Virus record (IMG/VR): IMGVR_UViG_3300032265_001314
Coordinates: 1-64,000 of that record
Source of the DNA: a virus
Strand: one strand, 5' to 3'
Length of the DNA stretch: 64,000 nucleotides
Below are positions 11,033 through 54,190 of this stretch, one piece after another. The notes under the pieces were generated by a model. The model saw only the letters and a program-made list of their open reading frames with translations. It was not told the origin of the DNA and did not search any database. Position numbers and translations under genes: made by a program. Each line of letters opens with the position of its first letter. Positions within the stretch are counted from its first letter, which is position 1.

Positions 11033-12280
11033 TTAAGCTTCTATCTTATTGATAATCGCTCTCATAGATTCAGCTGTTGGAACAGCTTGTGCGCCCACTG
11101 TATTGCGATTTAGATGATTACGAGCTGTTTGGGCACCTTTTACTATATTCCCACCTAATACATTTCCAGCAGCTTTATGCTTTGCTAGCGAACTCTTTAT
11201 TACTTTTGCCACTTTGCTCTCAGTTATTTTAGGCGGAGTTTTTGTAGTTATATATTCATATAACAACTGTCCGCCATAAACAATAGCAGCAGTAGCTACT
11301 ATAGGTATACCCCAATTAAAAACAAAATTTGCTATAGATTGTATAGCTTCTTCTGTGACGTGTTCACCTATCCATTTGTTAATTTGTGTAGCAGCATCTC
11401 TAACACTGGCAAATAATCCATTATTAGAACCTGCTGTTAAATTAGTGGCAGCAGCCTGTGCTTGATCAGCAATAGTGGGTTGTTGATATCCGTAGCCCGA
11501 TGGCAACTCTGCATTATTGGCTTTATCCCATAATGCTTGTCCTTGTTGCATATCATCGTAATCAGCTTGAGTTCCTCTATCTATTGGTGGAAGAGCATCA
11601 GGTGGTCTACCGCCCGGTTTAGCTTCTGGACCGTTAATTTGTTTGGCTAAATTTCCAGGAGTTAATTTTCCAAATGCTGTACTAGTTCCTTCGATCCCAC
11701 GACGAACTGAATCAATCGCGTCTTTAGCTCGGCCTGCCCCAATAGTTCCTGTTATTGCACCAGCAGCTCCACCATACCCGGCGCCAGCAAGAGTACCTGC
11801 ACCAGGGACAACTGAACCCAATGATCCGCCAGTGGCAGCTCCTAATGCTCCGCCCATTGTAGCGCCTGCTGCTACACCCTTAGGACCGGCATCACCACCT
11901 ATCATATTTGTTATACCTGCCGAAAGGAAGTTTATAGTGTTAGCAGCAGCCTCTGGATTTTTTAATCCTAAATATCCTAGAATAGATGTTATAGGATTAA
12001 ATGCACACCAAATCATAAATGATACTGCACTTTTAACAATAAACCCAGGCACTCCTACTAACATTGAAACAGTGGCAGATGCTAGTTTCTTAATCCCACC
12101 CCATATAAAATCACCGGCTTCGCCTAATATCTTTTTAAGACCATCCCATAGAGAAGAAAGTCCAAAATCCTCCATTAACATAGATTCAGTTATTGGCTGT
12201 GTATAAACAGTAGAGAGGAGCTGAGTCTTATAACTCTGGCTCCCCTCTACTAGATTGATGTAGTGTCTTATTGGATACAT
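11033..12280 (-). CDS. Putative internal virion/ejection protein with glycine zipper and TM segments
   Basis: GATMGGALGAATGGSLGSVVPGAGTLAGAGYGGAAGAITG; hydrophobic helices; LVE/ITE/LME sites; TAAATA 4 nt upstream. Confidence 0.55.
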   Translation of the reverse strand: MYPIRHYINLVEGSQSYKTQLLSTVYTQPITESMLMEDFGLSSLWDGLKKILGEAGDFIWGGIKKLASATVSMLVGVPGFIVKSAVSFMIWCAFNPITSILGYLGLKNPEAAANTINFLSAGITNMIGGDAGPKGVAAGATMGGALGAATGGSLGSVVPGAGTLAGAGYGGAAGAITGTIGAGRAKDAIDSVRRGIEGTSTAFGKLTPGNLAKQINGPEAKPGGRPPDALPPIDRGTQADYDDMQQGQALWDKANNAELPSGYGYQQPTIADQAQAAATNLTAGSNNGLFASVRDAATQINKWIGEHVTEEAIQSIANFVFNWGIPIVATAAIVYGGQLLYEYITTKTPPKITESKVAKVIKSSLAKHKAAGNVLGGNIVKGAQTARNHLNRNTVGAQAVPTAESMRAIINKIEA

Positions 12281-12287
12281 CATATAT

Positions 12288-12965
12288 TTAGTTGCTTAGA
12301 TAGTATTGTTCTACCCTCTTCCACCATTCGTTCTTCCAATGATCGTATTCGTCTGGCCATAGATCAAACTGTTGATATTGGAAATCTTGGCTACACATAA
12401 AGATATGTCCTTCACGGATATCTGTACCATGTACTTCATTGTGCGCTTCAACATAAGCTACTAGCTGTAGATAGTAATCTTCAACCCATTCCTTCTTCTT
12501 AGGCTTGTTAGTCTGCTTGTAATCCATTATGCAATGATTACCTTTATACACGCCAACTAGATCAGTAGTGCCTGCATATATCTTAGGAAAGAAAAGATTT
12601 ACTTCTTGTCCCCAAGCTTCTTCTAGATCAACTAAAGCTTTAGCTTGTATCTGTTCAGCCATTTTGCGGGCTTGTATAGAATAGGGATTCGTACCTGCGT
12701 CGGGCATAATCCCAGTTTCTATATAGACTTCAAGGAACTTGTGCATACGTGTTCCTCGCCCAGCAGCTTCGGTAGTTATCTCTTGTGCTTTTGCTTCACC
12801 AACACGCTTGCGCCATTCGATGAGATGCGTTTTGTCCTTAGTACGATCTAGGATCGTAGTAACACTGGCTACTGCATTACCGTCTGGACACTCGTATAGC
12901 CTACGTCCTTCGACTGATTTCCGTTTTATAGAAGCGTAATCAAACTTCTTTTTGATAAATGTCAT
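12288..12965 (-). CDS. PD-(D/E)XK exonuclease (Cas4/MGME1-like phage exonuclease)
   Basis: SVTTIL, GRGTRMHK, YAGTTDLV, IMDYKQT, QLVAY. Confidence 0.88.
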   Translation of the reverse strand: MTFIKKKFDYASIKRKSVEGRRLYECPDGNAVASVTTILDRTKDKTHLIEWRKRVGEAKAQEITTEAAGRGTRMHKFLEVYIETGIMPDAGTNPYSIQARKMAEQIQAKALVDLEEAWGQEVNLFFPKIYAGTTDLVGVYKGNHCIMDYKQTNKPKKKEWVEDYYLQLVAYVEAHNEVHGTDIREGHIFMCSQDFQYQQFDLWPDEYDHWKNEWWKRVEQYYLSN

Positions 12966-13557: not shown

Positions 13558-13905
13558 TCAACCTTGACGTTTCTTAGCAGCATTCTTAGCCATTTTGGCA
13601 ATGTTAGCTTTTCTCTTGTCTGGAGTAGTAGGTGCGGCTTTCTTAGCTGCCTTAGCTTCGGTATTTAATTCTATACCTTCACCGCTATAGCTACGGACCA
13701 CGGTCTTCCACATATCGGGATCCTGATTATATATAGCATTAAAACTATTATAATCTATCTGAGGCGTACCTGAGCCCTTCATATCTGCATTTAGTTGATC
13801 CCAAGTAAACTTTGCAGGTAATCCTGCATGATTATACTTGGCTATGGTATTCCTAAACAGAAGGACGAGGTCGGTGCCTGTGCTATCGACCTCGTATATT
13901 TTCAT
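13558..13905 (-). CDS. Hypothetical (putative head-associated) protein
   Basis: N-terminus MKIYEV; basic C-terminus; coupled to the upstream gene. Confidence 0.6.
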   Translation of the reverse strand: MKIYEVDSTGTDLVLLFRNTIAKYNHAGLPAKFTWDQLNADMKGSGTPQIDYNSFNAIYNQDPDMWKTVVRSYSGEGIELNTEAKAAKKAAPTTPDKRKANIAKMAKNAAKKRQG

Positions 13906-16112
13906 CTTCCTGAAAGGATCCTTGCGATCCTGCGTGTGCGATCAACACTCTCACGCTTTGCTCTTCCGCCTGCTGGAGTCTCTTCTTCGTCTTCTGCTGC
14001 TCCACCTGGTCCGGCAGATCCTGGAGCAGGTCCATTAGCAGTTAAAGGAGGCATACCGCCTGGTGCGCCTGGCATACCGCCTGGGCCTGCAGGCATTCCT
14101 GGCATACCGCCCATTGCTGCACCACCTTCACCGGTAATTACACCAACGATGCTGTTTAGAGCTTCACGTGCTGCCTTAACTGCTTGGAAAGCACTGTCTA
14201 GTGCTGGGCCTGCGACTTGGGTAAACTGTGCAGCTACATCGCTACCTAGCTCATCACGGATGCTATCTGCCATTTCCATTGCTGTATTAGCCTGCATCTG
14301 TGCGATATCTTCTGACCAACCAGTAAACTTATCAACCATGTCCTTGACAGCCATGATCACTTCAGCCTTGCCTTCTTCACCCTCACGTAGATAAAAACGG
14401 ATTGACTCTTTAAGCATACGGTCGACTTGTTCAGTCTTGTTCTTTTCCTTAGCTGCTGTTATAATATCACCGCGTGTAATCTTATCCTTTGGTGGATACT
14501 TAGCAGCTAGTTTCTTTTGTTTAGGAGTCATTTTCTTACCTTCCGTTGTCTCTTCTTCTATTTCCTCTTCTAGATCAAATTTTGCAGTATCTAGCTTATG
14601 TGCTGCTCTTCCAGCTAGATTGCCTCCAAGCATAGAACCGCCAACTCCGCCGAGGATACCGCCCAATTCTGGAGCGCCAAAAGCGCCGCCTACAGCAGCA
14701 CCTAATGGTTGGCCTAGGCTATACCCGCCATAACCGCCTGCTAGTCCTGCACCTAATTTTCCAAGTGAGCTTATGTTATGATCACCACCGATAGTCATCT
14801 CATCAACTGCTTGCGGAACACCATTCCTATGGCCATGATGGCTAAAATATGGTTTACCTGTTCCTTCGTGCCATAGCTTACCGCCGCACTCTTCACAATT
14901 TTGCTTATGGTGTTCACAATGCTTTAGGTTGCCCATCTTATGATGCTTGCTGTATTCCATAGCGTGATGCATAGCAAGCTCACACATTGAGTTGTCGCTT
15001 TCTGTTAGGCGTGATTTACCTATATTTGAAGTTTCACCTAATGCCCCGGGCGGAGCATCTTGATATAAACTGGGAGAACCTCCTTGTGGTACAGCAGCAG
15101 CGCCTGCAGCAGCAGCACCGCCTGGTAATAGTCCCTTGCCATAGCTTAGTGCATCACCTGCCATGCCTTTTAGGCCACTAAGTGCAGATTGTCCGACGCC
15201 TTGCAATGCTCCTAATGCTGCTGGATTATTGTAAAGATAACCAGCACCTAATCCCAATCCTGCCAATCCTGCTGCAGGTAGCAGATACTTACCAATGCCT
15301 TCGTCGATGCAGTGTGGCTCGCCACCTTCTAGCATCGGGTGGCTATGCCAGCATTCACCCATGTCACCGTGCCAAACTTGTCCGCCGCATTCAGAACAGC
15401 TCTGCTTGTGATGATGTGCTGCTTCTAGATCGCCACCATGATGATGTGTGCGATACATAATAGCATGATGCAGAGCCCTGGTTCCCATATCGGTACTTTC
15501 ACCGAGATCATCTCCTACTTTGCTACCTAATAGATAACCACCAATACCGCCGGGCCAGCCACCCATCAGCGCACCAAGTCCACCACCTAGCAAGCCGCCC
15601 CAGATACCTTCTGCGACGATGCTTTCGTTCATCTTCTTTTTCTTATCTTTTAGAGCCTTCTTCATTGGCTCTTTCTTGTTTCCGTCCTTGTCAAAATCAA
15701 GGAAATCTGGCTTAGCAGATTCATCGTACTTATTATACTTGTCACGTACCTTGTCTAGGTTTTTGCCGTCCTTACCAGCTTTGGCTAGCGCCTTCATTCC
15801 GTCCTTGCCATACTTCATCATGCCTTTAGCAGCACGACTCATTTTCTTTTCTTTGGCTTCACTAAACACTTCCTGCATACGCTTATCGAGCACATCCTTC
15901 ATTAGCTTTAGCTTGAAGAATTCTTCACTCTCAAGTGCTGAGTTGAAGTTTGCCATTTTAAATTGATTTATTTTATTTTCTATTAGTTTCGAAGCTCTAA
16001 TCAATTCCTGATCATTGAAGCTCTTGATATCAATCTTGCCACCAAATTTCTTTTGAAGAGATTCATTTAAGTGGTCTGATGAAACGTTAATACGGAAGTC
16101 GCTGGTTTTCAT
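13902..16112 (-). CDS. Putative modular head-core/internal polyprotein (736 aa)
   Basis: Start MKTSDF after TAAATA; modules bounded by hydrophobic-x-E; EF-hand-like DFDKDGNKKE; 3 Gly zippers; 2 His/Cys repeats; helical C-terminal domain. Confidence 0.65.
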   Translation of the reverse strand: MKTSDFRINVSSDHLNESLQKKFGGKIDIKSFNDQELIRASKLIENKINQFKMANFNSALESEEFFKLKLMKDVLDKRMQEVFSEAKEKKMSRAAKGMMKYGKDGMKALAKAGKDGKNLDKVRDKYNKYDESAKPDFLDFDKDGNKKEPMKKALKDKKKKMNESIVAEGIWGGLLGGGLGALMGGWPGGIGGYLLGSKVGDDLGESTDMGTRALHHAIMYRTHHHGGDLEAAHHHKQSCSECGGQVWHGDMGECWHSHPMLEGGEPHCIDEGIGKYLLPAAGLAGLGLGAGYLYNNPAALGALQGVGQSALSGLKGMAGDALSYGKGLLPGGAAAAGAAAVPQGGSPSLYQDAPPGALGETSNIGKSRLTESDNSMCELAMHHAMEYSKHHKMGNLKHCEHHKQNCEECGGKLWHEGTGKPYFSHHGHRNGVPQAVDEMTIGGDHNISSLGKLGAGLAGGYGGYSLGQPLGAAVGGAFGAPELGGILGGVGGSMLGGNLAGRAAHKLDTAKFDLEEEIEEETTEGKKMTPKQKKLAAKYPPKDKITRGDIITAAKEKNKTEQVDRMLKESIRFYLREGEEGKAEVIMAVKDMVDKFTGWSEDIAQMQANTAMEMADSIRDELGSDVAAQFTQVAGPALDSAFQAVKAAREALNSIVGVITGEGGAAMGGMPGMPAGPGGMPGAPGGMPPLTANGPAPGSAGPGGAAEDEEETPAGGRAKRESVDRTRRIARILSGR

Positions 16113-16158
16113 AGTTATAATCCTATAGATGTATGTCTTAAAGTTATTTATTCCGTAT

Positions 16159-19768: not shown

Positions 19769-20714
19769 CTTTTTTCCAGATCGACCTAAAACTCGTGTGC
19801 AATGGCTATTGGGCAATAATTGCAACTATAGCTGTAGCTATTGCCACGAGATGTTTCGTAAAGGAGACAGGCCGTTTCCTAACGAAGAACTGATAGTAGA
19901 AATATGTATGGATCTGATAACTCATTACGATGAGTTAGGGAGAGATGTTGTATTTGAATTCATAGGTGGAGAACCTACCCAAGCAGGTAAGCTATACAAT
20001 GTCGGTGCTAGGCTGCATAATCATCCAGTAAATTTTGTATTAAAAACTAACGGTAGCGCGGATCTAGATTGGTGGATTAATTCTAGGAAATATGTAAGTG
20101 ATGTGGTTATAAGCGTACATAGAGAATTCTGTGATCTCGACCATATTGAACAAGTTATTCAAATATTGAGGGACGAGAAACTGGGTAATCCTGTTAGCGT
20201 GCAAGTGTTGATACCCGCTACTAATGCCAAAGAAAGTTTTGATTGGGCAATAGCAACTAGGAAAAGATTACGCCAAAAATACGACTTAGGAGACTATCAG
20301 ATGCTGTTTAGCAATTTTGCTAGAGGCAGCGATATGTATATGCCCTATACTAATGAGCAGTGGGCAGAGTATTATAAATCCATCGGAAGAGAACCACCTG
20401 AGCCCAAAACTATAGATCAAAATCCTCTAGTAATGAGGAATACAGTTTCGCATCAGGAATCGATAGGCACAATTATACCTATAAAAAGAAATCCTCTAGA
20501 TTTCAGAGGTTATAGCTGTTATGCAGGTATTGAAACCCTAGTGATAGATAATGCTGGTTCTGTTTGGAGAGGATGGTGTAACCAAGGTGGCGTAGTTGGA
20601 TCTATATACGAGATGCCTGTAGTTTGGCCAAAAGACCCGTTAGTTTGTTCCAAAGAACTCTGTACTAACGGGTTCGATCAGATAGCTAAAAAAGAAATTA
20701 TTCCCCAGCCTTAG
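19755..20714 (+). CDS. Radical SAM protein with C-terminal twitch/SPASM-like Cys cluster
   Basis: CNYSCSYC, GGEPT, TNGS, CYAG...GWC...CSKELC; ends in TAG. Confidence 0.88.
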   Translation: MDTDNFFPDRPKTRVQWLLGNNCNYSCSYCHEMFRKGDRPFPNEELIVEICMDLITHYDELGRDVVFEFIGGEPTQAGKLYNVGARLHNHPVNFVLKTNGSADLDWWINSRKYVSDVVISVHREFCDLDHIEQVIQILRDEKLGNPVSVQVLIPATNAKESFDWAIATRKRLRQKYDLGDYQMLFSNFARGSDMYMPYTNEQWAEYYKSIGREPPEPKTIDQNPLVMRNTVSHQESIGTIIPIKRNPLDFRGYSCYAGIETLVIDNAGSVWRGWCNQGGVVGSIYEMPVVWPKDPLVCSKELCTNGFDQIAKKEIIPQP

Positions 20715-22716
20715 TAGATCTAGGACCGCCGTATTTTTCACCCTTCATCTTGATACCATCGAGCTTAACACGACGGTCGGCTACTTTTACACTCTTACCA
20801 CTCTTATGTGGTAGATATCCTTGGCTTATACAGCTAGAGAGTTGGCTTGCTCCCATGTTTCCACGCTTACGTGCATTAGCTTTACAGAATGCCCTAGAAG
20901 CCTTACCTGCTTCCATTAGCCAATAGTCGTCATCTTCCATATCTAAGAAACTGTTTTCATACATATGTTTGCCACCATTAGTATCCCATTGTGGACCACT
21001 TGGTGGAGCCATCTGTCCTTCGAGGTTAGTAGCGGCTTGCTTATCAGCGGCAGTAGGTGCCGGTGCTTTAGCAGGCTGCGATCCTGCCATAGCAGCTAAA
21101 CTATTAGTACGGGCTTGATTACCATCACCAGTCGCATTGATCGGTGGTAGATTTTTTACCATAGGGTCTGCACCATCTTCACCTACACTCGCTGTTTGGC
21201 TATGTGCTTGTGCTTGTTCTATGAATTTCTTTAGATTTTCTATCCCTTGGTTGATTGGAGCTATTAACTGTGTAACTGTTTGACCACCGAGGAAGTCTGT
21301 GAGATGCCATTCGATGTCACGCTCTAAACTCATCTGCATAGATTCTAATACTTGTTCTACGTGATTTAGCATATCACCGGCGCTAGCGTGACCCATAGGA
21401 CTAGTACCGGCATCTTCATCAAATGTATGTCCTAATATCTTACCAGTGTGATGTCCTAGATAACCGCCACCTAATGCTCCTGCTACTGGCAAAACTCCTA
21501 ACAGATTATCTGCGCCGCCGCCACCCATATAATATCCTAACCCGGCACCGCCTAGGGTTCCAAGTGTATCTAATATTCCTTCGTCGGTTTTCTTGTTCTT
21601 TTTCTTCTTAGCGATAGCTATAGCTGCTTGTTGTGCTGGATTGACAGCTTCTTTCTTCATAGCATTGCTTAACTGCTTAGTACCCTTGTCGGCTTTGTTA
21701 AACTCTTTAGCTACACTCGTCTTGATTCCTACCTTCTTAGCAAACTTAGGATTGTGTGCTGCTGCTGCCATCGTGCGAGCCTGCTTTTCACTAGTGCTTC
21801 TTTCAAACATACTTTCGTATTCTTTGGATCCATAAGAATCATCTTTGTATCCTGCCATATACTGTTCTATCTCTTTTGGATCAGTTAGCTTAACACGTAT
21901 AGCAGTACCGCCTGGGGTTTGTGCATACTTGTGTGGAGTAGCAGGACGACCGTAATAACCATCTGCTACTCCTCTATCATAAGGTGAACCTTTTTCTTTG
22001 CTCATATCATCTGAATCTTCAGCTGTAGTTACACGGTTCTGTATCTTGATTTCTGCGTATGGATAAGTCTTCTCAGCCTGCGCACGGAACTGCATAAAAA
22101 GTTCATTTGGCATAACGAATGTTCCGCCCGGACCGCGATACTTCATTAGATTTGGAAGGTCGCGCTGTGCTTGCTTATAGAATCTTGGTCCTACAGTAAA
22201 TGTTACAGTCTTCTGCGGTGCAGCTTGTCCTATGTCACGTATCTTTTTACCAAACATTGGATTTGGTTTCTTCTTGCGCTTTACAGTCACCTTCTCATCT
22301 GGCTTTTCTGGAGGAGCCGATGTTGGATCGTCCTTTTGATATAATGATATACGATCTCCGCCTTCTCTCCTCACCCAGTCAAAAAACTTACCGAGGAACC
22401 CTGCATCATCTGGAATCTTTTTAGGGGGGACTATGATGAGTGTCTTAGCAGATATGAATACTTTACCAAACTGTGTGTCGCCTAGCACTTCTTTTACTGC
22501 CTTTACGACGTCTTCTGCGCTGGTCAGTTTGTTGAACTTAACCCTAGCATTACCGTAATGCACTTGATCTGGACTGTTACCAAATCCTGCCCAACCAACT
22601 AGATACTGCTTTGGATTACCGTACTCGTCTTTTTGACCAGTATCCTTCGCACCAAAGCGCAGGAAGATATGTCCAGTAGGTGTAGATATCTCACTTAAAA
22701 CGTCGTTAAAATTCAT
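20698..22716 (-). CDS. Putative modular internal virion polyprotein (672 aa)
   Basis: TAAATA upstream; MNFNDVLSE leader; short modules bounded by Glu sites, including a Gly zipper. Confidence 0.6.
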   Translation of the reverse strand: MNFNDVLSEISTPTGHIFLRFGAKDTGQKDEYGNPKQYLVGWAGFGNSPDQVHYGNARVKFNKLTSAEDVVKAVKEVLGDTQFGKVFISAKTLIIVPPKKIPDDAGFLGKFFDWVRREGGDRISLYQKDDPTSAPPEKPDEKVTVKRKKKPNPMFGKKIRDIGQAAPQKTVTFTVGPRFYKQAQRDLPNLMKYRGPGGTFVMPNELFMQFRAQAEKTYPYAEIKIQNRVTTAEDSDDMSKEKGSPYDRGVADGYYGRPATPHKYAQTPGGTAIRVKLTDPKEIEQYMAGYKDDSYGSKEYESMFERSTSEKQARTMAAAAHNPKFAKKVGIKTSVAKEFNKADKGTKQLSNAMKKEAVNPAQQAAIAIAKKKKNKKTDEGILDTLGTLGGAGLGYYMGGGGADNLLGVLPVAGALGGGYLGHHTGKILGHTFDEDAGTSPMGHASAGDMLNHVEQVLESMQMSLERDIEWHLTDFLGGQTVTQLIAPINQGIENLKKFIEQAQAHSQTASVGEDGADPMVKNLPPINATGDGNQARTNSLAAMAGSQPAKAPAPTAADKQAATNLEGQMAPPSGPQWDTNGGKHMYENSFLDMEDDDYWLMEAGKASRAFCKANARKRGNMGASQLSSCISQGYLPHKSGKSVKVADRRVKLDGIKMKGEKYGGPRSTKAGE

Positions 22717-24178: not shown

Positions 24179-24250
24179 TGGCGCTCTGTATGGGAGTTGA
24201 ACCCATCCTTGCAGTTTTAGAATCTGCTAGCTCTCCGCGAGCAACAAAGC
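24179..24250 (-). tRNA. Atypical tRNA with CUA anticodon (amber suppressor-like)
   Basis: GCTTTGT T GCTC-GCGGA-GAGC T AGCAGA-TTCTAAA-ACTGCA AGG ATGGG-TTCAACT-CCCAT ACAGAGC G CCA; 72 nt with encoded CCA. Confidence 0.8.
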
Positions 24251-25078: not shown

Positions 25079-25156
25079 TGGTCGGGGTACTCAGATTCGA
25101 ACTGAGGGTCTCCTGGTCCCAAACCAGGCGCGATGGCCAGACTTCGCTATACCCCG
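25079..25156 (-). tRNA. tRNA-Pro(TGG)
   Basis: CGGGGTATAGCG...CCTGG-TTTGGGA-CCAGG...GTTCGAATC...TACCCCGACCA. Confidence 0.95.
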
Positions 25157-25158
25157 AC

Positions 25159-25234
25159 TGGTGGAGACGGACGGGATCGAACCGACGACCTGAAGCTTGC
25201 AAAGCTACCGCTCTCCCAACTGAGCTACGTCCCC
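25159..25234 (-). tRNA. tRNA-Ala(TGC)
   Basis: GGGGACGTAGCTCAGTTGGGAGAGC...AGC-TTTGCAA-GCT...GTTCGATCC...CGTCTCCACCA; G3.U pair. Confidence 0.96.
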
Positions 25235-34100: not shown

Positions 34101-36152
34101 TCACTTCGTATTTGTACGGTATACTCCATCCCACCCTTCGCCTGGTGGATTCTTAGCATATTCATCACAGCGGTCTGCCCACATATCGTAATAGCCGTCC
34201 ATCTTACCATCAAACTTTCCTTTGAGACTTAGTGCTATGCTTTTAGCAATAATAAATCTCTGAGCATTATATGCGTTCATCATAGTATTGTGTTCATTCT
34301 TAGCATTTTTATATCCAATAGGAACTTTTGAAAGCTCACCTAATACTGTGAATATATTCACACCTTCTTTTTTACCCTTGACTGCTAGACAATCTAGAGG
34401 TAGAGTAAAGTATGCATCTTTCACGTATTCGTTTGTCTTAGGACCTATTACCATTGCGACGTGATATGGCTTGCTCTGTCCTTCAAGTCTGCTCGCCAAG
34501 TTGACGCCGTCCCCGAGACAAGTATAATCGAAACGTTGGCTACTACCCATGTTACCCACAACAACAGTATCAGTGTTAATGCCCAATCCCATACCAAATG
34601 GTGGAACACCTTCAAGCGCAACTTCTCTGTTAAATTCATCTAGGCTTCCTAACATTTCCAATGCTGTCTTTACAGCATCCTTTGCGTGTTTTTCATTGCT
34701 AAGTGGAGCGTTCCAAAAAGCCATCTGTGCATCGCCGATGTACTTGTCCAGTGTTCCGTGATTCTCCAGTATCTTCTTAGTCATCGCTGTCATGTAGCGA
34801 TTCATTATCTTGGTTAATCCCTGAACATCGCTTCCGTAATGCTCACTAATAGTAGTAAACCCACGAACATCAGTAAACATGATTGATAGCTCAACTGAGT
34901 CTCCTCCCAATGCGAGCAGTTCGGGATTCTTCTGTAACCTAGCTACTAAGTCTGGGCTTAGGTAAGTTCCAAACTGTTTCTTTATCTGTTGCTTCTGAAG
35001 GAACTCGGATACGAATTTAACTCCGTAGGCATGCAGAGCGACCAAGATGATTCCAGATACAAAAATGGTTGCGTCGCATAACCATAGAGAGCTAGTAAAG
35101 AGATACTGACTAAGTAGCACACTCCCGCCGACCAATACAATAACTGAGGCAAGTCCAACATACATCCACCTTGTTAAAACTAGAAGTAAGATACCAGCAA
35201 CAACCAATGCGATAGTTTCTGCGCCTTCTGCCCATCCGGGTCTCTGGATATTTACCCCATTTATCATAGTTCCTAGCACCGCTGCCTGTAGATCTTGTGG
35301 CCATATAGCACCCTTTGCTGTTGGTACAGGATTAGCTATACCAGCTGCGGTAGTGCCTACTATAACAACAGCACCTCCTAGATCATCTGGTAAGTTTATA
35401 GCACTGTAGCTCTTGTTAGTCTGGCTCCAGTCTATCCATATGCGTCCTAGATTGTCTGTAGTTATTGCACCAAACTTAGGTATGCGCATCTTATCAACAC
35501 CGTCTTCGTTCAGTTTAATCTGCACGGTGCTATCACCTGCCATAACACGGAGAGTTTCTAGAGATAGGTTAGGATATAGCTTACCACCGCTAGTGATCAA
35601 TAAGGGTATCCTGCGATTAACACCATCTATCTCAGGTAGTGTATTGATAGTTCCTACACCGACTGCTGCTGATTCTAGCTCAGGGATGTTAGCTATGATA
35701 CCCGGATAGGGTATGATAGTATCCATATATTTTGCGTTAATGACCGCGGCACCCGGATTCTTGGGAGTGTTTTTTCCCTTGATGCTAGGCACGTTGCTGA
35801 GCAAGATGGGGTAGTTTTTCATAGTATTAGCCAATATACTATCACCGCCCATACGATCGGCTTCAGGCATCATTATGTTCCAAACGACCAAACCTGCTTT
35901 ATGTTTATAGAGATCTTCTATTATACCAGCATATACATCGCGTTTAAACGGCCACTGTCCGTACTTGTCTAGTGTAGCTTCATCTATGTTAACAGTTATT
36001 ATGTTGTTAGCTGTAGGAGCTTTATTAGTGATGAGAGTATCAAAATAGCGTAGCTTTACGCTTTCTACAAAGGTAGGGTTAGATAGTTTTATAGCCACTA
36101 CTAATAATAAAGTTATTAGAGCGGTCCAGGGGCTCAATAATATTCTTTTCAT
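34101..36152 (-). CDS. CHASE2-domain class III adenylate cyclase
   Basis: IDEATLDKYGQWPFKR (CHASE2); TM helices; FTDVRGFT, DKYIGDA, FDYTCLGDGVNLASRLE (K/D adenine-specificity residues). Confidence 0.93.
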   Translation of the reverse strand: MKRILLSPWTALITLLLVVAIKLSNPTFVESVKLRYFDTLITNKAPTANNIITVNIDEATLDKYGQWPFKRDVYAGIIEDLYKHKAGLVVWNIMMPEADRMGGDSILANTMKNYPILLSNVPSIKGKNTPKNPGAAVINAKYMDTIIPYPGIIANIPELESAAVGVGTINTLPEIDGVNRRIPLLITSGGKLYPNLSLETLRVMAGDSTVQIKLNEDGVDKMRIPKFGAITTDNLGRIWIDWSQTNKSYSAINLPDDLGGAVVIVGTTAAGIANPVPTAKGAIWPQDLQAAVLGTMINGVNIQRPGWAEGAETIALVVAGILLLVLTRWMYVGLASVIVLVGGSVLLSQYLFTSSLWLCDATIFVSGIILVALHAYGVKFVSEFLQKQQIKKQFGTYLSPDLVARLQKNPELLALGGDSVELSIMFTDVRGFTTISEHYGSDVQGLTKIMNRYMTAMTKKILENHGTLDKYIGDAQMAFWNAPLSNEKHAKDAVKTALEMLGSLDEFNREVALEGVPPFGMGLGINTDTVVVGNMGSSQRFDYTCLGDGVNLASRLEGQSKPYHVAMVIGPKTNEYVKDAYFTLPLDCLAVKGKKEGVNIFTVLGELSKVPIGYKNAKNEHNTMMNAYNAQRFIIAKSIALSLKGKFDGKMDGYYDMWADRCDEYAKNPPGEGWDGVYRTNTK

Positions 36153-48353: not shown

Positions 48354-49120
48354 TATGCATCATCCTTGTGTCTACGGAAGGTCCATTTGTCAAACCCGTG
48401 TTTGGCTATCTTAACAACATCGTTGGTGATCTCTACCATTGGATTAGGATTGCAGGGAATCACACCTCCAACAAACATACTGATCTCTTGGAACAGAGTG
48501 TAGGGATCGATCGCTTTAGGGAAGCCGTAATCCTTGAGAGACTTGCCGTTTTCTGCAGAGTTGCATTGCCACATTATAGGATTTCTCCTATAGTAGCCTC
48601 GATCTCTGCGCTCGCACCAAACTGCTGTAACTACCCTGTTATCAATCAACCATTCTAGCTGTTGTGCTGTAGCTGCTATAGGGATAAAGAAGGTTTTAAG
48701 ATCGGGAAATATATCTTTCTCCGTCTCTAACTTCTCCCACTTGTATCTTTTAGAAGAAGGCTTAGCTACTTCTCTATCAAACCCTGCTAGCCAGGCAACA
48801 AAGTCATCATAGCGCCAGAATACGTTAAGTATCTCACTACCAAACTCTTTTACTACACGTATTCCGCCATAGTGTTTTCCTGCTACATAGATGCTGATAG
48901 GCAACAGCACCAAAACAGTCATACCTAATGCAGGATCTTTATACTTAAGAGTGTTGTTGTCACTCCAAGATTTGCCTTTAATGATGCTATGGGGATAGCC
49001 CGCATAAAGCGGACAATCTCTGTCAGAGATCTCTTTGTGCTCACGCACAAAGACAACTTCGCTATCTTGCCCATATGCTAGGGCAGAATCATAATAATCG
49101 TGCCCACCTATGATACGCAT
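48353..49120 (-). CDS. Conserved phage hypothetical protein
   Basis: MRIIGGHDYYD...FQEISMF...KHGFDKWTFR. Confidence 0.7.
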   Translation of the reverse strand: MRIIGGHDYYDSALAYGQDSEVVFVREHKEISDRDCPLYAGYPHSIIKGKSWSDNNTLKYKDPALGMTVLVLLPISIYVAGKHYGGIRVVKEFGSEILNVFWRYDDFVAWLAGFDREVAKPSSKRYKWEKLETEKDIFPDLKTFFIPIAATAQQLEWLIDNRVVTAVWCERRDRGYYRRNPIMWQCNSAENGKSLKDYGFPKAIDPYTLFQEISMFVGGVIPCNPNPMVEITNDVVKIAKHGFDKWTFRRHKDDA

Positions 49121-50361
49121 TAGCTATCTCCATCAAACTGATAATTCCAATGTGCTCCTTCCCAAAGGCCGCGCACACTATCTATCCTAGTCTGTGTTCC
49201 GCAGTTCTTCTTGATAGCATCGATGATCATATTGCGGGTATTCTTACCATCAAACTTACCAAAGATAAACTGCGGAGCGAAAGGATCCTGGTCCTTGATA
49301 GTAGGCATCCACTGTAGGGCATAGGTCTTGCGATCCAATCCGGCATTCTGTACCATCAACCAATACTTATCGTACTTGTCAACACTGCTAGCGATACCTC
49401 CCCAGAACTCAGATTCAAAAGCTTCTAGACGCTTGCGATCGTCATCTAGCATAAAGCTCTTGATATCATCGATACCTGCAGAAGTTATCATTTCAACCAC
49501 ATTCTTCTCTTGGCTCAGATGATCCTTAGTCTTATGGATGCGAAGGTACCATTCGCCTTTGACCTTGAGCATATGCCCATCGTCAAAGCGCACGATCCAT
49601 CCTTCGATTCCTTGTGAGGAACGAGTTTCATCCATTAGTAAAGCCAAGTCCTCCGAATCACCATCGTATGCCTTGACTACGTCGATGCCAAACTGATCTC
49701 CCAAAGCACACATTTCACCGTAGCTCTTATATTCTCCAGTGACAGTGTGACGCAGAGCGATGAGAACCAGACGATCCTCAGGATAATCAATCACGATACG
49801 CTGCTTGCGGCTGCACCATTCAAATACAGGAGTTATACCTAGTGTCATGACAAACATAGCAAATCGAGCATAATCGGGATTGCGAGCCACAAATTCCTCT
49901 GCACCCATACCTACATCAGTAAGACCCATCTTGGTGCCCCAACGCACATATCCACCCGATATGATACCATCAGGTCCTGTGGTAGTACCTACAATCACAG
50001 GAGTGATCATAGATCCATCAAGCTTCTCAAGCACGACGTGAGGTTGTGAAAAATCGATCTTGCTGAACTGCGTCTCATCACGCTCGTTCACATTGAAAAA
50101 CTTGTGCAGGCGGCGGCTCATTATAGTGCCATCCTTGTTAAACAATAGACCACGACACTCACGACGGATGGCGTTACGCTCTGCGATCAGATCGTGCTCA
50201 AGTTCGGGAGATTCATCTACAGGCGGAAAGGTATCAGCCATTGCGACCATGTAGTTAACCACATAGCCCCATTCACGCTCTGCGATGATGAACTCATCAC
50301 ACCCCTCGATAGCAGGACGCACATCATCTAGATGCTGTATAGACGGAAACTGATAACGCAT
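49120..50361 (-). CDS. rnlA: T4 Rnl1-like RNA ligase
   Basis: RECRGLLF, HKFFNVNE, EKLDGSMI (motif I), FEW, EGWIV, KVKGEWY. Confidence 0.9.
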   Translation of the reverse strand: MRYQFPSIQHLDDVRPAIEGCDEFIIAEREWGYVVNYMVAMADTFPPVDESPELEHDLIAERNAIRRECRGLLFNKDGTIMSRRLHKFFNVNERDETQFSKIDFSQPHVVLEKLDGSMITPVIVGTTTGPDGIISGGYVRWGTKMGLTDVGMGAEEFVARNPDYARFAMFVMTLGITPVFEWCSRKQRIVIDYPEDRLVLIALRHTVTGEYKSYGEMCALGDQFGIDVVKAYDGDSEDLALLMDETRSSQGIEGWIVRFDDGHMLKVKGEWYLRIHKTKDHLSQEKNVVEMITSAGIDDIKSFMLDDDRKRLEAFESEFWGGIASSVDKYDKYWLMVQNAGLDRKTYALQWMPTIKDQDPFAPQFIFGKFDGKNTRNMIIDAIKKNCGTQTRIDSVRGLWEGAHWNYQFDGDS

Positions 50362-52582: not shown

Positions 52583-54190
52583 TCAATCAGTAAATCCACC
52601 GTGATAAGGATTGTAAACATAATTGTTAGCCTGTGTCATTAATGCACGACTATTCAACCAATCGTTATCAGTTGTAGTAGTGTTGACTACACCCTTCTTG
52701 CTATTAGCAGTCACCCAAGTTAACATCTGTGCAGGAGTAGTTTCCGGATGGCGTGCTAGATGCAAAGCGCATATTCCAGTAACCTGTGGAGTAGCCATAC
52801 TGGTTCCGCTTATCTTGCAGGCTTTGAATGTGTTCTGTGCTTGTGTACCGAAATCATATGCGAATGGACTGAAAGTACTTAGAGCGCTAGTTGAGCTAGT
52901 TATATAGGTTCCTGGACTTATGATATCAACACCCGGTCCACGCTCGCTATAGGTAGCTAGCTGCTCTTTGAGCACGTTCTGTACAGTGATGGTAGCATAG
53001 TCGCCGGCTGCTACATCTATAGTTCCCCTTGGACTAGAACCCCGATGATAATATGTAGCGACTCCCGGAGGATTGACTCCATAGACGTTGCTCTTATAGA
53101 AATTACCGTAATCTGGGCCTGTAGATAAATCTACCTTATGGCTATAGTTTCCTGCTGCCGCGATATATATGATGCCTGCTGCCATGCCCTGTTGTATCTG
53201 TGTATCTATACTTGGTACACGGAATCCATGCTCTGGACCGACTTGTCCGTAAGCTGATTGATAGCTAACCTTAGTAGAATAGTTATGTGCTGAACCTCTA
53301 TAGGTAATGTTAGTGATTACCTTAGCATTTAGGTTTGCTGGATTGCCGCTATAATACCAAGCAAATCCCCAGCTCATATTAACGATAGTTGGACGCTTGC
53401 GTCCAGTAGCGGGATCGTTTGGTTTAGCCAGATGCCAGTAGCGTATGAGATCAAATGCTGTGCCTATACCGTTAGTAAAGCTCTTAGTACCATTGGCAGT
53501 ATTATCGAATATCCTCATACTGTAGATCTTAGCACCCTTGGCGTAACCATAAGTCTTACCTGCTGCTATGCCTGTTACGTGGGTACCGTGTTCACCTTCG
53601 CCTTGTATGCTGAGATCATAAAACCCCACAGGCATTGGAGTAGTTGGAGTAGGGCTAGTAGTATACCAATTGATCTGTTGCACCCTGCTATTGCCCTGGC
53701 TATCTAGGAATTCGGGATGGTTGGGTTGTATACCATCATCCATTATCACTATGTCAACACCGCTGCCGTCTTCGTCATAAGCATACGTAGCACCTGGACT
53801 AGCTTCAGGTGCTGCTAATCCCGTGCGCCTCAGGCCCCAATTGACATTATAAACATCTGGATTAGTTGATGTGCGAGTAAAGGTTCCGTGCGTGTTATTG
53901 TAAGCTGTAGGAGTTTCTGTAGCATTGAGCATTTTTCCGTAAGTAGTAAAATGCTTAGCCATCTCTCTGAGAGGATTGAGATGTACGTGCTGGACTCTTG
54001 GATCGTTTGCTAATGCTGCTGCTTCGTGATCTTCGAGATAGTAATGTGTCATTACTTCGTTTAGTTCTCGAGGATCAGCAACTTCGACTATCCTATTAGG
54101 AACATTAGGCTTGTTTGTTGCTGTTGTTAAATCAGCGTGTAGGCTATCAATACTAGCTTCATCTGGTGCTACTACTACGAACTCTCTCAT
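52583..54190 (-). CDS. Subtilisin-like S8 serine protease
   Basis: IVIMDDGI (Asp), HGTHVTG (His), AAAGN, SGTSMATPQVTG (Ser); TAAATA and SD upstream. Confidence 0.93.
   Translation of the reverse strand: MREFVVVAPDEASIDSLHADLTTATNKPNVPNRIVEVADPRELNEVMTHYYLEDHEAAALANDPRVQHVHLNPLREMAKHFTTYGKMLNATETPTAYNNTHGTFTRTSTNPDVYNVNWGLRRTGLAAPEASPGATYAYDEDGSGVDIVIMDDGIQPNHPEFLDSQGNSRVQQINWYTTSPTPTTPMPVGFYDLSIQGEGEHGTHVTGIAAGKTYGYAKGAKIYSMRIFDNTANGTKSFTNGIGTAFDLIRYWHLAKPNDPATGRKRPTIVNMSWGFAWYYSGNPANLNAKVITNITYRGSAHNYSTKVSYQSAYGQVGPEHGFRVPSIDTQIQQGMAAGIIYIAAAGNYSHKVDLSTGPDYGNFYKSNVYGVNPPGVATYYHRGSSPRGTIDVAAGDYATITVQNVLKEQLATYSERGPGVDIISPGTYITSSTSALSTFSPFAYDFGTQAQNTFKACKISGTSMATPQVTGICALHLARHPETTPAQMLTWVTANSKKGVVNTTTTDNDWLNSRALMTQANNYVYNPYHGGFTD

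Follow-up and report, generated by a model that had tools for sequence, protein, structure and literature searches.

A candidate head-internal polyprotein with exchangeable cassettes bounded by protease-type glutamate sites in uncultured T4-like jumbo phages

Results

The stretch of DNA analysed here, the window, is the first 64 kb (64,000 nucleotides) of a 91-kb virus fragment, IMG/VR record IMGVR_UViG_3300032265_001314. It encodes on its minus strand a 736-residue protein (window 13902–16112). By position, this protein is orthologous to the product of a late gene that belongs to the core set of a clade of uncultured T4-like jumbo phages (330–358 kb). We propose that this protein is a head-internal carrier polyprotein, in which a candidate Peptidase_S77 protease would cut at (L/I/V/M/Y)-x-Glu and release a set of pieces. 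The probability of this reading is put at about 0.6. Between its conserved ends, the protein holds about 490 residues of inserted cassettes (two basic, one with a DxDxDG loop, three Gly-rich and two of a His/Cys type), and insertions and deletions between orthologs begin and end at the Glu sites of the cassette borders.

The gene is a single open reading frame (ORF) of 736 codons plus a stop codon (13902–13904), and orthologs of its product were found at 93% and 63% identity. The ATG at 16112 is taken as the start codon, because 123 of 126 family N-domains begin with M-K-T-x-D-F at residue 1 and the orthologs do likewise; on the same ground, a longer TTG-initiated frame in the ORF list was rejected as the gene. 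CheckV gave 27% completeness for the 91-kb fragment, which implies a genome of about 340 kb. Genomic context was drawn from IMG/VR loci. The block around the gene is collinear with six large contigs, in which nrdB, nrdA, a small ORF, a tailspike-like gene, an exonuclease gene (52–83% identity), the family gene and small ORFs follow each other. The whole protein had no match at E 0.01 or better in a Pfam scan. A profile search of solved structures gave no match and the ESM Atlas no usable one, and a full-text literature search for four of the cassette motifs returned no papers.

Layout of the 736-residue protein

An earlier note on this DNA, made from the letters alone, had described a polyprotein whose composition switches at hydrophobic-x-Glu sites. 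The translation bears this out, and all seven junctions quoted there (FSE|AKE, YDE|SAK, VAE|GIW, LGE|STD, IDE|GIG, LTE|SDN and VDE|MTI) are present. In the full-length AlphaFold2 model, residues 11–128, 205–271, 372–440, 559–659 and 716–735 are confidently folded and the segments between them have low confidence.

All of the following segments lie on the minus strand. Residues 1–17 (16062–16112; MKTSDF...LNE|S) are a predicted helical leader and a candidate targeting propeptide ending in L-N-E. The conserved N-terminal helical domain follows (residues 18–85; 15858–16061), which is present in 216 of 245 relatives and has a predicted local distance difference test score (pLDDT) of 84–94. Cassette A (residues 86–131; 15720–15857) is basic and helical, carries a charge of +8, ends in Y-D-E|S and recurs elsewhere in unrelated polyproteins. 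Cassette B (residues 132–168; 15609–15719) has the sequence KPDFLDxDKDGNKKEPMKKA with a DxDxDG loop, continues into KKKMNE|SIVAE| and is modelled with low pLDDT. Gly-rich segment 1 (residues 169–205; 15498–15608) contains 43% Gly, has a grand average of hydropathy (GRAVY) of +0.46 and keeps a GYLLGSKVGDD motif in the orthologs. It is followed by the first copy of the His/Cys module (residues 206–271; 15300–15497; pLDDT 94–97 in the full-length model), by Gly/Ala-rich segment 2 (residues 272–371; 15000–15299), which ends in L-T-E|S, has low pLDDT over 278–371 and differs in length between orthologs, and by the second His/Cys copy (residues 372–438; 14799–14999).

The third Gly-rich segment and an acidic linker (residues 439–524; 14541–14798) exist in two alternative variants among the orthologs. 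A basic module with a charge of +8 and a PKDKITRGDII motif (residues 525–569; 14406–14540) ends in L-K-E|S and leads to the family core, a conserved C-terminal hairpin predicted as a coiled coil (residues 570–662; 14127–14405; helices 559–622 and 624–659). The last segment (residues 663–736; 13905–14126) combines a Pro/Gly/Met-rich and acidic linker, a near-invariant G-R-x-K-R-E|S motif and a basic terminal helix (716–735); at least 90% of alignment rows keep R717, R720 and E721.

Two labels of the earlier note were found to be resemblances only. The loop that it called EF-hand-like, D-F-D-K-D-G-N-K-K-E, has Lys at position 8, lacks Glu at position 12 and has no Pfam match. The segments that it called Gly zippers reach no Pfam Gly-zipper model at threshold in the 736-residue protein; in relatives, the Gly-rich segments score 16–18 bits against Gly-zipper_YMGG and Gly-zipper_Omp (E 0.002–0.01), where the cut-offs are 25–29.

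Cassette exchange in the family

When 1.84 billion cluster representatives (50% identity) were searched exhaustively with phmmer, at least 1589 relatives were returned at E 0.001 or better. Nearly all of them share the last 170 or so residues, at their own C-terminus, and most share the first 85 or so, a helical domain with a near-invariant L-N-E at residues 15–17. The stretch between the two ends ranges from 6 to 537 residues, with a median of 189, in the 215 collected proteins that have both. In every source the family is unnamed ("hypothetical"), and the only labels are of DUF3008 (PF11450), derived from one cargo cassette. In a tblastn search of 50,697 cultured-phage records, only Sinorhizobium phage Phosso and Agrobacterium phage Atu_ph07 were matched, both in the C-domain alone, and the cassette region of residues 86–271 had no match in the same records.

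Hidden Markov models built from the window segments were run on 245 collected relatives for counting the cassettes. The basic cassette A (MSRAAKG...KYDE) occurs in 27 of the relatives, cassette B in 137 (180 copies) and the His/Cys module in 89 (98 copies). Further recurrent cassettes are DUF3008, an NDGNLANN...TRGDVI module and a DYSAKKA...GKPGK module. Eight proteins carry the same cassettes behind other leaders and without the N- and C-domains of the family; the cassettes are therefore a pool common to different precursors. DUF3008 was found as a Glu-bounded cassette at residues 83–138 of the relatives P0005, P0007 and P0008 (E 1e-16 to 2e-20), which suggests that some DUF3008 copies may be phage capsid cargo.

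The earlier note had made its proposal depend on ortholog insertions and deletions coinciding with Glu sites. They do start and end there in a comparison of nine orthologs with 65–99% identity. In one ortholog, an additional cassette stands between G-E|S and V-K-E|A, and two (P0154 and P0157) are without cassette A. The two variants of the third Gly-rich segment are exchanged directly after V-x-E|, while the flanking His/Cys module is still about 80% identical. Indels within low-complexity Gly-rich stretches do not obey the rule. The extreme case is a cargo-free ortholog in G003, a relative of 330 kb (L054:9686–10657, plus strand), which aligns to residues 1–81 and 575–724 with twelve residues between the two blocks; the N-domain corresponds to its residues 13–93. 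Directly after its C-terminal K-R-E|S, this ortholog has an extra DYSAKKA...GKPGK cassette, which is also found inside the unrelated polyproteins P0044 and P0054.

Glutamate at the cassette borders

The cassette borders have the form (L/I/V/M/Y)-x-Glu followed by Ser, Gly or Ala. Gp21 of T4 cuts after L/I-X-E (PMC9026906), and the comparison with this rule made by the earlier note holds for the protein: the leader ends in L-N-E at residues 15–17, and the borders have V, L, M, I or Y at P3 and Glu at P1. Relatives were compared in unique sequence contexts, where background frequencies are 0.10 for Glu and 0.07 for Asp. Seven residues ahead of the helix that opens the His/Cys module, Glu is found in 33 of 45 contexts and Asp in 3. 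Among these 33, P3 is V, L or M in 29 and P1' is S, G, N or A in 32, mostly Ser or Gly. Cassette A ends in Y-D-E in 18 of 20 contexts and the leader in L/I/M-x-E in 114 of 132, and Asp takes the place of the border Glu in none of the 20 or 132. Glu 131, 205, 271, 371 and 438 lie at the edges of units folded in the AlphaFold2 model.

The number of sites was also compared with shuffled sequences. The pattern [LIVMFY]-x-E-[SGA] occurs 11 times in the protein, with 4.1 expected (p about 0.0015). The hydrophobic-x-E pattern alone is loose and fits 30 of the 54 Glu residues.

Head protease and virion association

Three near-complete contigs of the clade (330, 358 and 278 kb) encode Peptidase_S77 (E about 1e-26) and Gp23 (E down to 5e-102). 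The protease gene of G003, the 330-kb contig, lies at 139639–140079. In the two that were tested further, G003 and G004, Portal_T4 is matched with E about 1e-114, and the head genes stand in T4 order with a scaffold-like gene between the protease and capsid genes. The capsid proteins of the clade have Y-L-(S/A)-E|S aligned to the maturation site F-L-T-E|A of T4 gp23, and the scaffold-like protein contains 12 motif sites in 362 residues. The specificity of the protease thus looks conserved in the clade.

A T4-late-promoter-like box, GAATAAATAAC, stands 31–41 nucleotides upstream of the ATG (16143–16153, minus strand). A TAAATA box, usually as GATAAATAA, precedes all 62 distinct family genes, mostly by 30–50 nucleotides and in a few by up to 75, compared with 4.3% of random 100-nucleotide windows. 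In the window, TATAAATA, the exact T4 box, occurs 5 times where 8.4 are expected and thus shows no enrichment. The box that matters is the shorter, positionally fixed TAAATA, and by analogy with T4 we infer that it acts as a late promoter in this clade.

A link to virions comes from PHROG 14154, annotated "virion structural protein". Residues 570–661 match profile positions 31–122 of 771 (E 6.3e-10), and an ortholog matches positions 29–215 (E 1.2e-13), so that one domain only is in common. PHROG 14154 is gp044 of Atu_ph07 (full-length match). This protein, with a predicted mass of 86 kDa, was detected by 21 unique peptides in electrospray tandem mass spectrometry (ESI-MS/MS) of virions, and was most abundant in gel band 10, among proteins of 15–20 kDa (PMC6102473 Table S5). 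Its migration is consistent with processing of this remote homolog.

The His/Cys module

The duplication of a His/Cys repeat was confirmed at 15300–15497 and 14799–14999, with about 66 residues in each copy. The two copies are 43% identical over 65 residues without gaps (pairwise E 2e-17). AlphaFold2 was run on alignment A2, with 20 rows consisting of five module segments and fifteen full-length relatives. The model has a pLDDT of 92.1 and a predicted template modelling score (pTM) of 0.79, with helices at 2–22 and 25–37 and a beta hairpin at 41–44/50–54. Ala13, Tyr16, Gly23, Gly39, His44, Gly48 and His54 are invariant, Cys35 is kept in at least 90% of the rows, and no row lacks a Cys at both 35 and 38. 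Cys38, Cys50 and most of the helix His residues vary, and Cys50 is absent from modules of the second-copy type. From this pattern, a metal site formed by Cys35/38, His44, His54 and a fourth ligand is plausible.

The earlier note had recognised no family for the repeat, and the searches agree with it: the module has no Pfam match at threshold and no significant PDB or BFVD match. For the model, Foldseek (PDB, BFVD) and VIA-align (48,161 chains) gave partial matches only, of a generic helical-hairpin or WW-like kind; the best VIA-align Z is 5.8, from generic helical hairpins. The small metal-binding protein SmbP superposes on the His-lined hairpin with Z 5.4 and a root-mean-square deviation of 1.0 over 41 residues, covering the hairpin only. 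Stand-alone His/Cys proteins did not turn up in a word-based search, and the longer proteins that did were all close relatives, which is weak evidence. By its model, the module is a confidently predicted small domain without a known structural relative.

Other features of the window

All genes in this paragraph with a stated strand lie on the minus strand. A 672-residue protein (window 20698–22716) matches three PHROGs with residues 307–352, two of them "virion structural protein" (E 5e-18 to 6e-8), and has partial homologs in two syntenic relatives. A 416-residue Gly-rich protein (11033–12283), encoded between the exonuclease and the tailspike-like gene, shows a modest enrichment of the [LIVMFY]-x-E-[SGA] motif (z 2.4). 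PHROG and Pfam gave no match for it, none of the six syntenic relatives has a counterpart, and it looks like an insertion specific to this phage. ARAGORN predicts a permuted (two-piece) tmRNA gene at 939–1335 with the tag ANDNVATYEMALAA, which may hint at the host group, possibly an alphaproteobacterial one, and a 72-nucleotide tRNA with a CUA anticodon at 24179–24250 (amber suppressor type; labelled Pyl). The latter stands beside tRNA-Pro and tRNA-Ala (25079–25234); the 736-residue gene reads through cleanly in table 11. The window further encodes a CHASE2 adenylate/guanylate cyclase (34101–36152), a T4 Rnl1-type RNA ligase (49120–50361) and a 535-residue Peptidase_S8 subtilase (52583–54190). 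As a candidate for the processing enzyme the subtilase was discarded, since Glu-specific cutting is not typical of subtilases.

Discussion

The proposal of the earlier note that the precursor is cut into a set of peptides stands in part. The sites that fit the gp21 rule, the S77 protease of the relatives, the Glu-specific borders and the indels at Glu argue for it, whereas the EF-hand and Gly-zipper labels attached to the products stay below threshold. As a head-internal carrier, the protein would act as follows. Its conserved ends would co-assemble with the prohead core and bring the precursor in. A gp21-type protease, the Peptidase_S77 seen only in the near-complete relatives, would then cut after the border Glu. 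This would take off the 17-residue leader and yield some ten to thirteen pieces of 15–100 residues. The predicted products are the leader, the N-domain, two basic peptides of +8, a DxDxDG peptide of +2.5, three Gly-rich pieces, two His/Cys domains and the C-terminal pieces. The two strongly basic pieces would most probably remain on the packaged DNA and act as counter-ions, in the manner of the internal proteins of T4. A cassette with its own cut site could be gained, lost or swapped without disturbing assembly, and such self-contained sites would explain the extreme variability of the middle region of the family.

Several observations weigh against this reading. No protease, capsid or portal gene was found on the 91-kb fragment or on the fragments of the two closest relatives, and because these hold no head genes, the protease of this phage is assigned from more distant relatives; those that carry S77 are only 36–45% identical in the family protein. 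Glu 17 and Glu 85 lie inside helices predicted with confidence by AlphaFold2 and not in linkers, which counts against these two sites, or else the helices must open. After the His/Cys module, V/I-x-E is found in only 15 of 42 unique contexts, and the near-invariant K-R-E|S near the C-terminus has no hydrophobic P3. The exonuclease encoded next to the gene (window 12288–12965, minus strand) contains four [LIVMFY]xE[SGA] sites with 0.9 expected (z 3.7). Because this unrelated neighbour scores similarly, the motif count is weak and non-specific evidence, and the weight rests on the comparison of relatives. The link to Atu_ph07 is remote (25% identity and E 3e-3 in tblastn), and the shared domain is at the other end of gp044. 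Gp044 was also seen in all 13 gel bands (PMC6102473 Table S5). Finally, the conserved Lys-rich V-K-E linkers could be inherited, or could be recombination points, without any cutting.

Inherited linkers are also part of an explanation that we consider doubtful, in which the product is a late virion or assembly protein that stays whole. It would be built like beads on a string, as a head-internal, decoration or fibre part, and its Glu/Lys-rich linkers would be inherited flexible spacers. The long low-confidence segments between small folded units agree with such a build, as do the sites 17 and 85 within helices and the likeness of the linkers beyond Glu, typically as KKK-V-K-E. At the borders themselves, however, the Glu is seldom replaced by Asp (3 of 45, 0 of 20 and 0 of 132 contexts), and it is accompanied by a hydrophobic P3 and a small P1', as in gp21 substrates. 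The homologous cut site of the capsid protein is kept in the clade, and gp044, the remote homolog, runs far below its mass. Both observations speak against an intact chain.

If the precursor is cut, the released pieces may be effectors that are ejected with the DNA, with the Gly-rich peptides inserting in the host membrane and the His/Cys modules binding metal in the host. This extension is tentative and, in our estimate, unlikely. It is conditional on cleavage and so draws on the same evidence as the carrier reading. In T4, the peptides derived from the scaffold mostly leave the head before DNA packaging (PMC9026906), which does not favour it. The invariant His44 and His54, the near-invariant Cys35 and the constant Cys at 35 or 38 would suit a metal-binding product, and so would the superposition of the His-lined hairpin on SmbP; yet most of the helix His and two of the four Cys are not conserved, the SmbP match is a generic helical hairpin only, and no Pfam zinc-finger, EF-hand or Gly-zipper model is reached at threshold.

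Least probable is a non-virion protein of the infected cell, for example one that is membrane-associated or condensate-forming through its Gly-rich and Pro/Gly/Met-rich segments and whose borders mark recombination at conserved linker DNA: the gene does lie about 110 kb from the head module in G003, among nucleotide-metabolism and nuclease genes, and the Gly-rich segments of relatives do weakly resemble Gly-zipper models below the cut-off, but the genes of the T4 internal proteins likewise lie at a distance from the head cluster, the late-promoter-like box precedes 62 of 62 family genes, the C-domain matches a virion family supported by mass spectrometry, and the protein lacks both a signal peptide and any strongly hydrophobic segment (GRAVY at most +0.46).

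Among known systems, IPI, IPII, IPIII and Alt of T4, which carry a capsid targeting sequence (CTS) and are processed by gp21, are comparable in several respects. Their genes are late and away from the head cluster, their products are basic, they have a short N-terminal leader with an M-K-T start and a hydrophobic-x-Glu end, and their cargo is highly variable between related phages. The CTS has been suggested as the way in which T4-like phages load diverse proteins (PMC9026906). In contrast to the T4 proteins, which are single small proteins with one cut (two in Alt), the 736-residue precursor has about ten cassettes between conserved domains of about 70 and 170 residues, and sequence homology between the two was not established. 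T4 gp22, gp67 and gp68 share a helical, charged character, an acidic stretch and a basic C-terminal tail, and gp21 cuts these T4 proteins at many L/I-x-E sites into small peptides. Gp67 even has a ten-residue look-alike (RNFLIEGEEP, compared with RFYLREGEEG in the 736-residue protein). Homology to gp67 or gp68 was rejected nevertheless, since hhalign with the family alignment A1 gave E 0.12 (10 columns) and 0.27, which adds to the points against the carrier reading. Unlike T4, the clade also has its own scaffold-like gene between protease and capsid, and the folded cargo modules have no counterpart among the T4 core proteins.

The inner-body or ejection proteins of phiKZ, 201phi2-1 and SPN3US are likewise head-internal proteins of jumbo phages. 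The gp21-like proteases gp175 and gp245 cut them extensively, each time behind the Glu of a short motif, and some of them are ejected into the host (PMC9026906; PMC10052503). They differ in belonging to another phage lineage and in showing mostly propeptide trimming, not strings of shuffled cassettes; tblastn of the cultured-phage records gave no sequence similarity to them. Gp044 of Atu_ph07 has the homologous helical domain, followed by an acidic linker and a G-R-A-x-K-E|S motif. In gp044, however, this domain stands at the N-terminus, ahead of about 580 unrelated residues; the cassettes of the window are all missing, and identity is about 25%.

The cutting of head proteins after Glu by gp21-type proteases and the loading of internal proteins are already known. 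What is new here is a conserved two-ended carrier with exchangeable cassettes bounded by protease-type sites, together with a new small domain. Speculatively, this aquatic jumbo-phage clade might use the carrier as an exchangeable payload rack, with a shared pool of cassettes that bring their own protease sites and yield tailored peptides entering the host with the DNA. Such a rack would be the phage equivalent of effector cocktails that are encoded as polyproteins. The pool, on an equally uncertain footing, might include the new His/Cys mini-domain as a metal binder, DxDxDG loops, DUF3008, Gly-zipper-like membrane peptides and basic DNA binders.

The carrier is a syntenic core gene of a large unannotated family, with at least 1589 representatives at 50% identity, and its His/Cys domain is worth a structure and a metal analysis. 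If the cleavage is true, it would explain how the many small internal peptides of giant capsids arise from few genes, and mature virion peptides could be predicted from metagenomic sequence by a simple rule. It would also mean that T4-like capsids have a natural and modular way in for foreign proteins.

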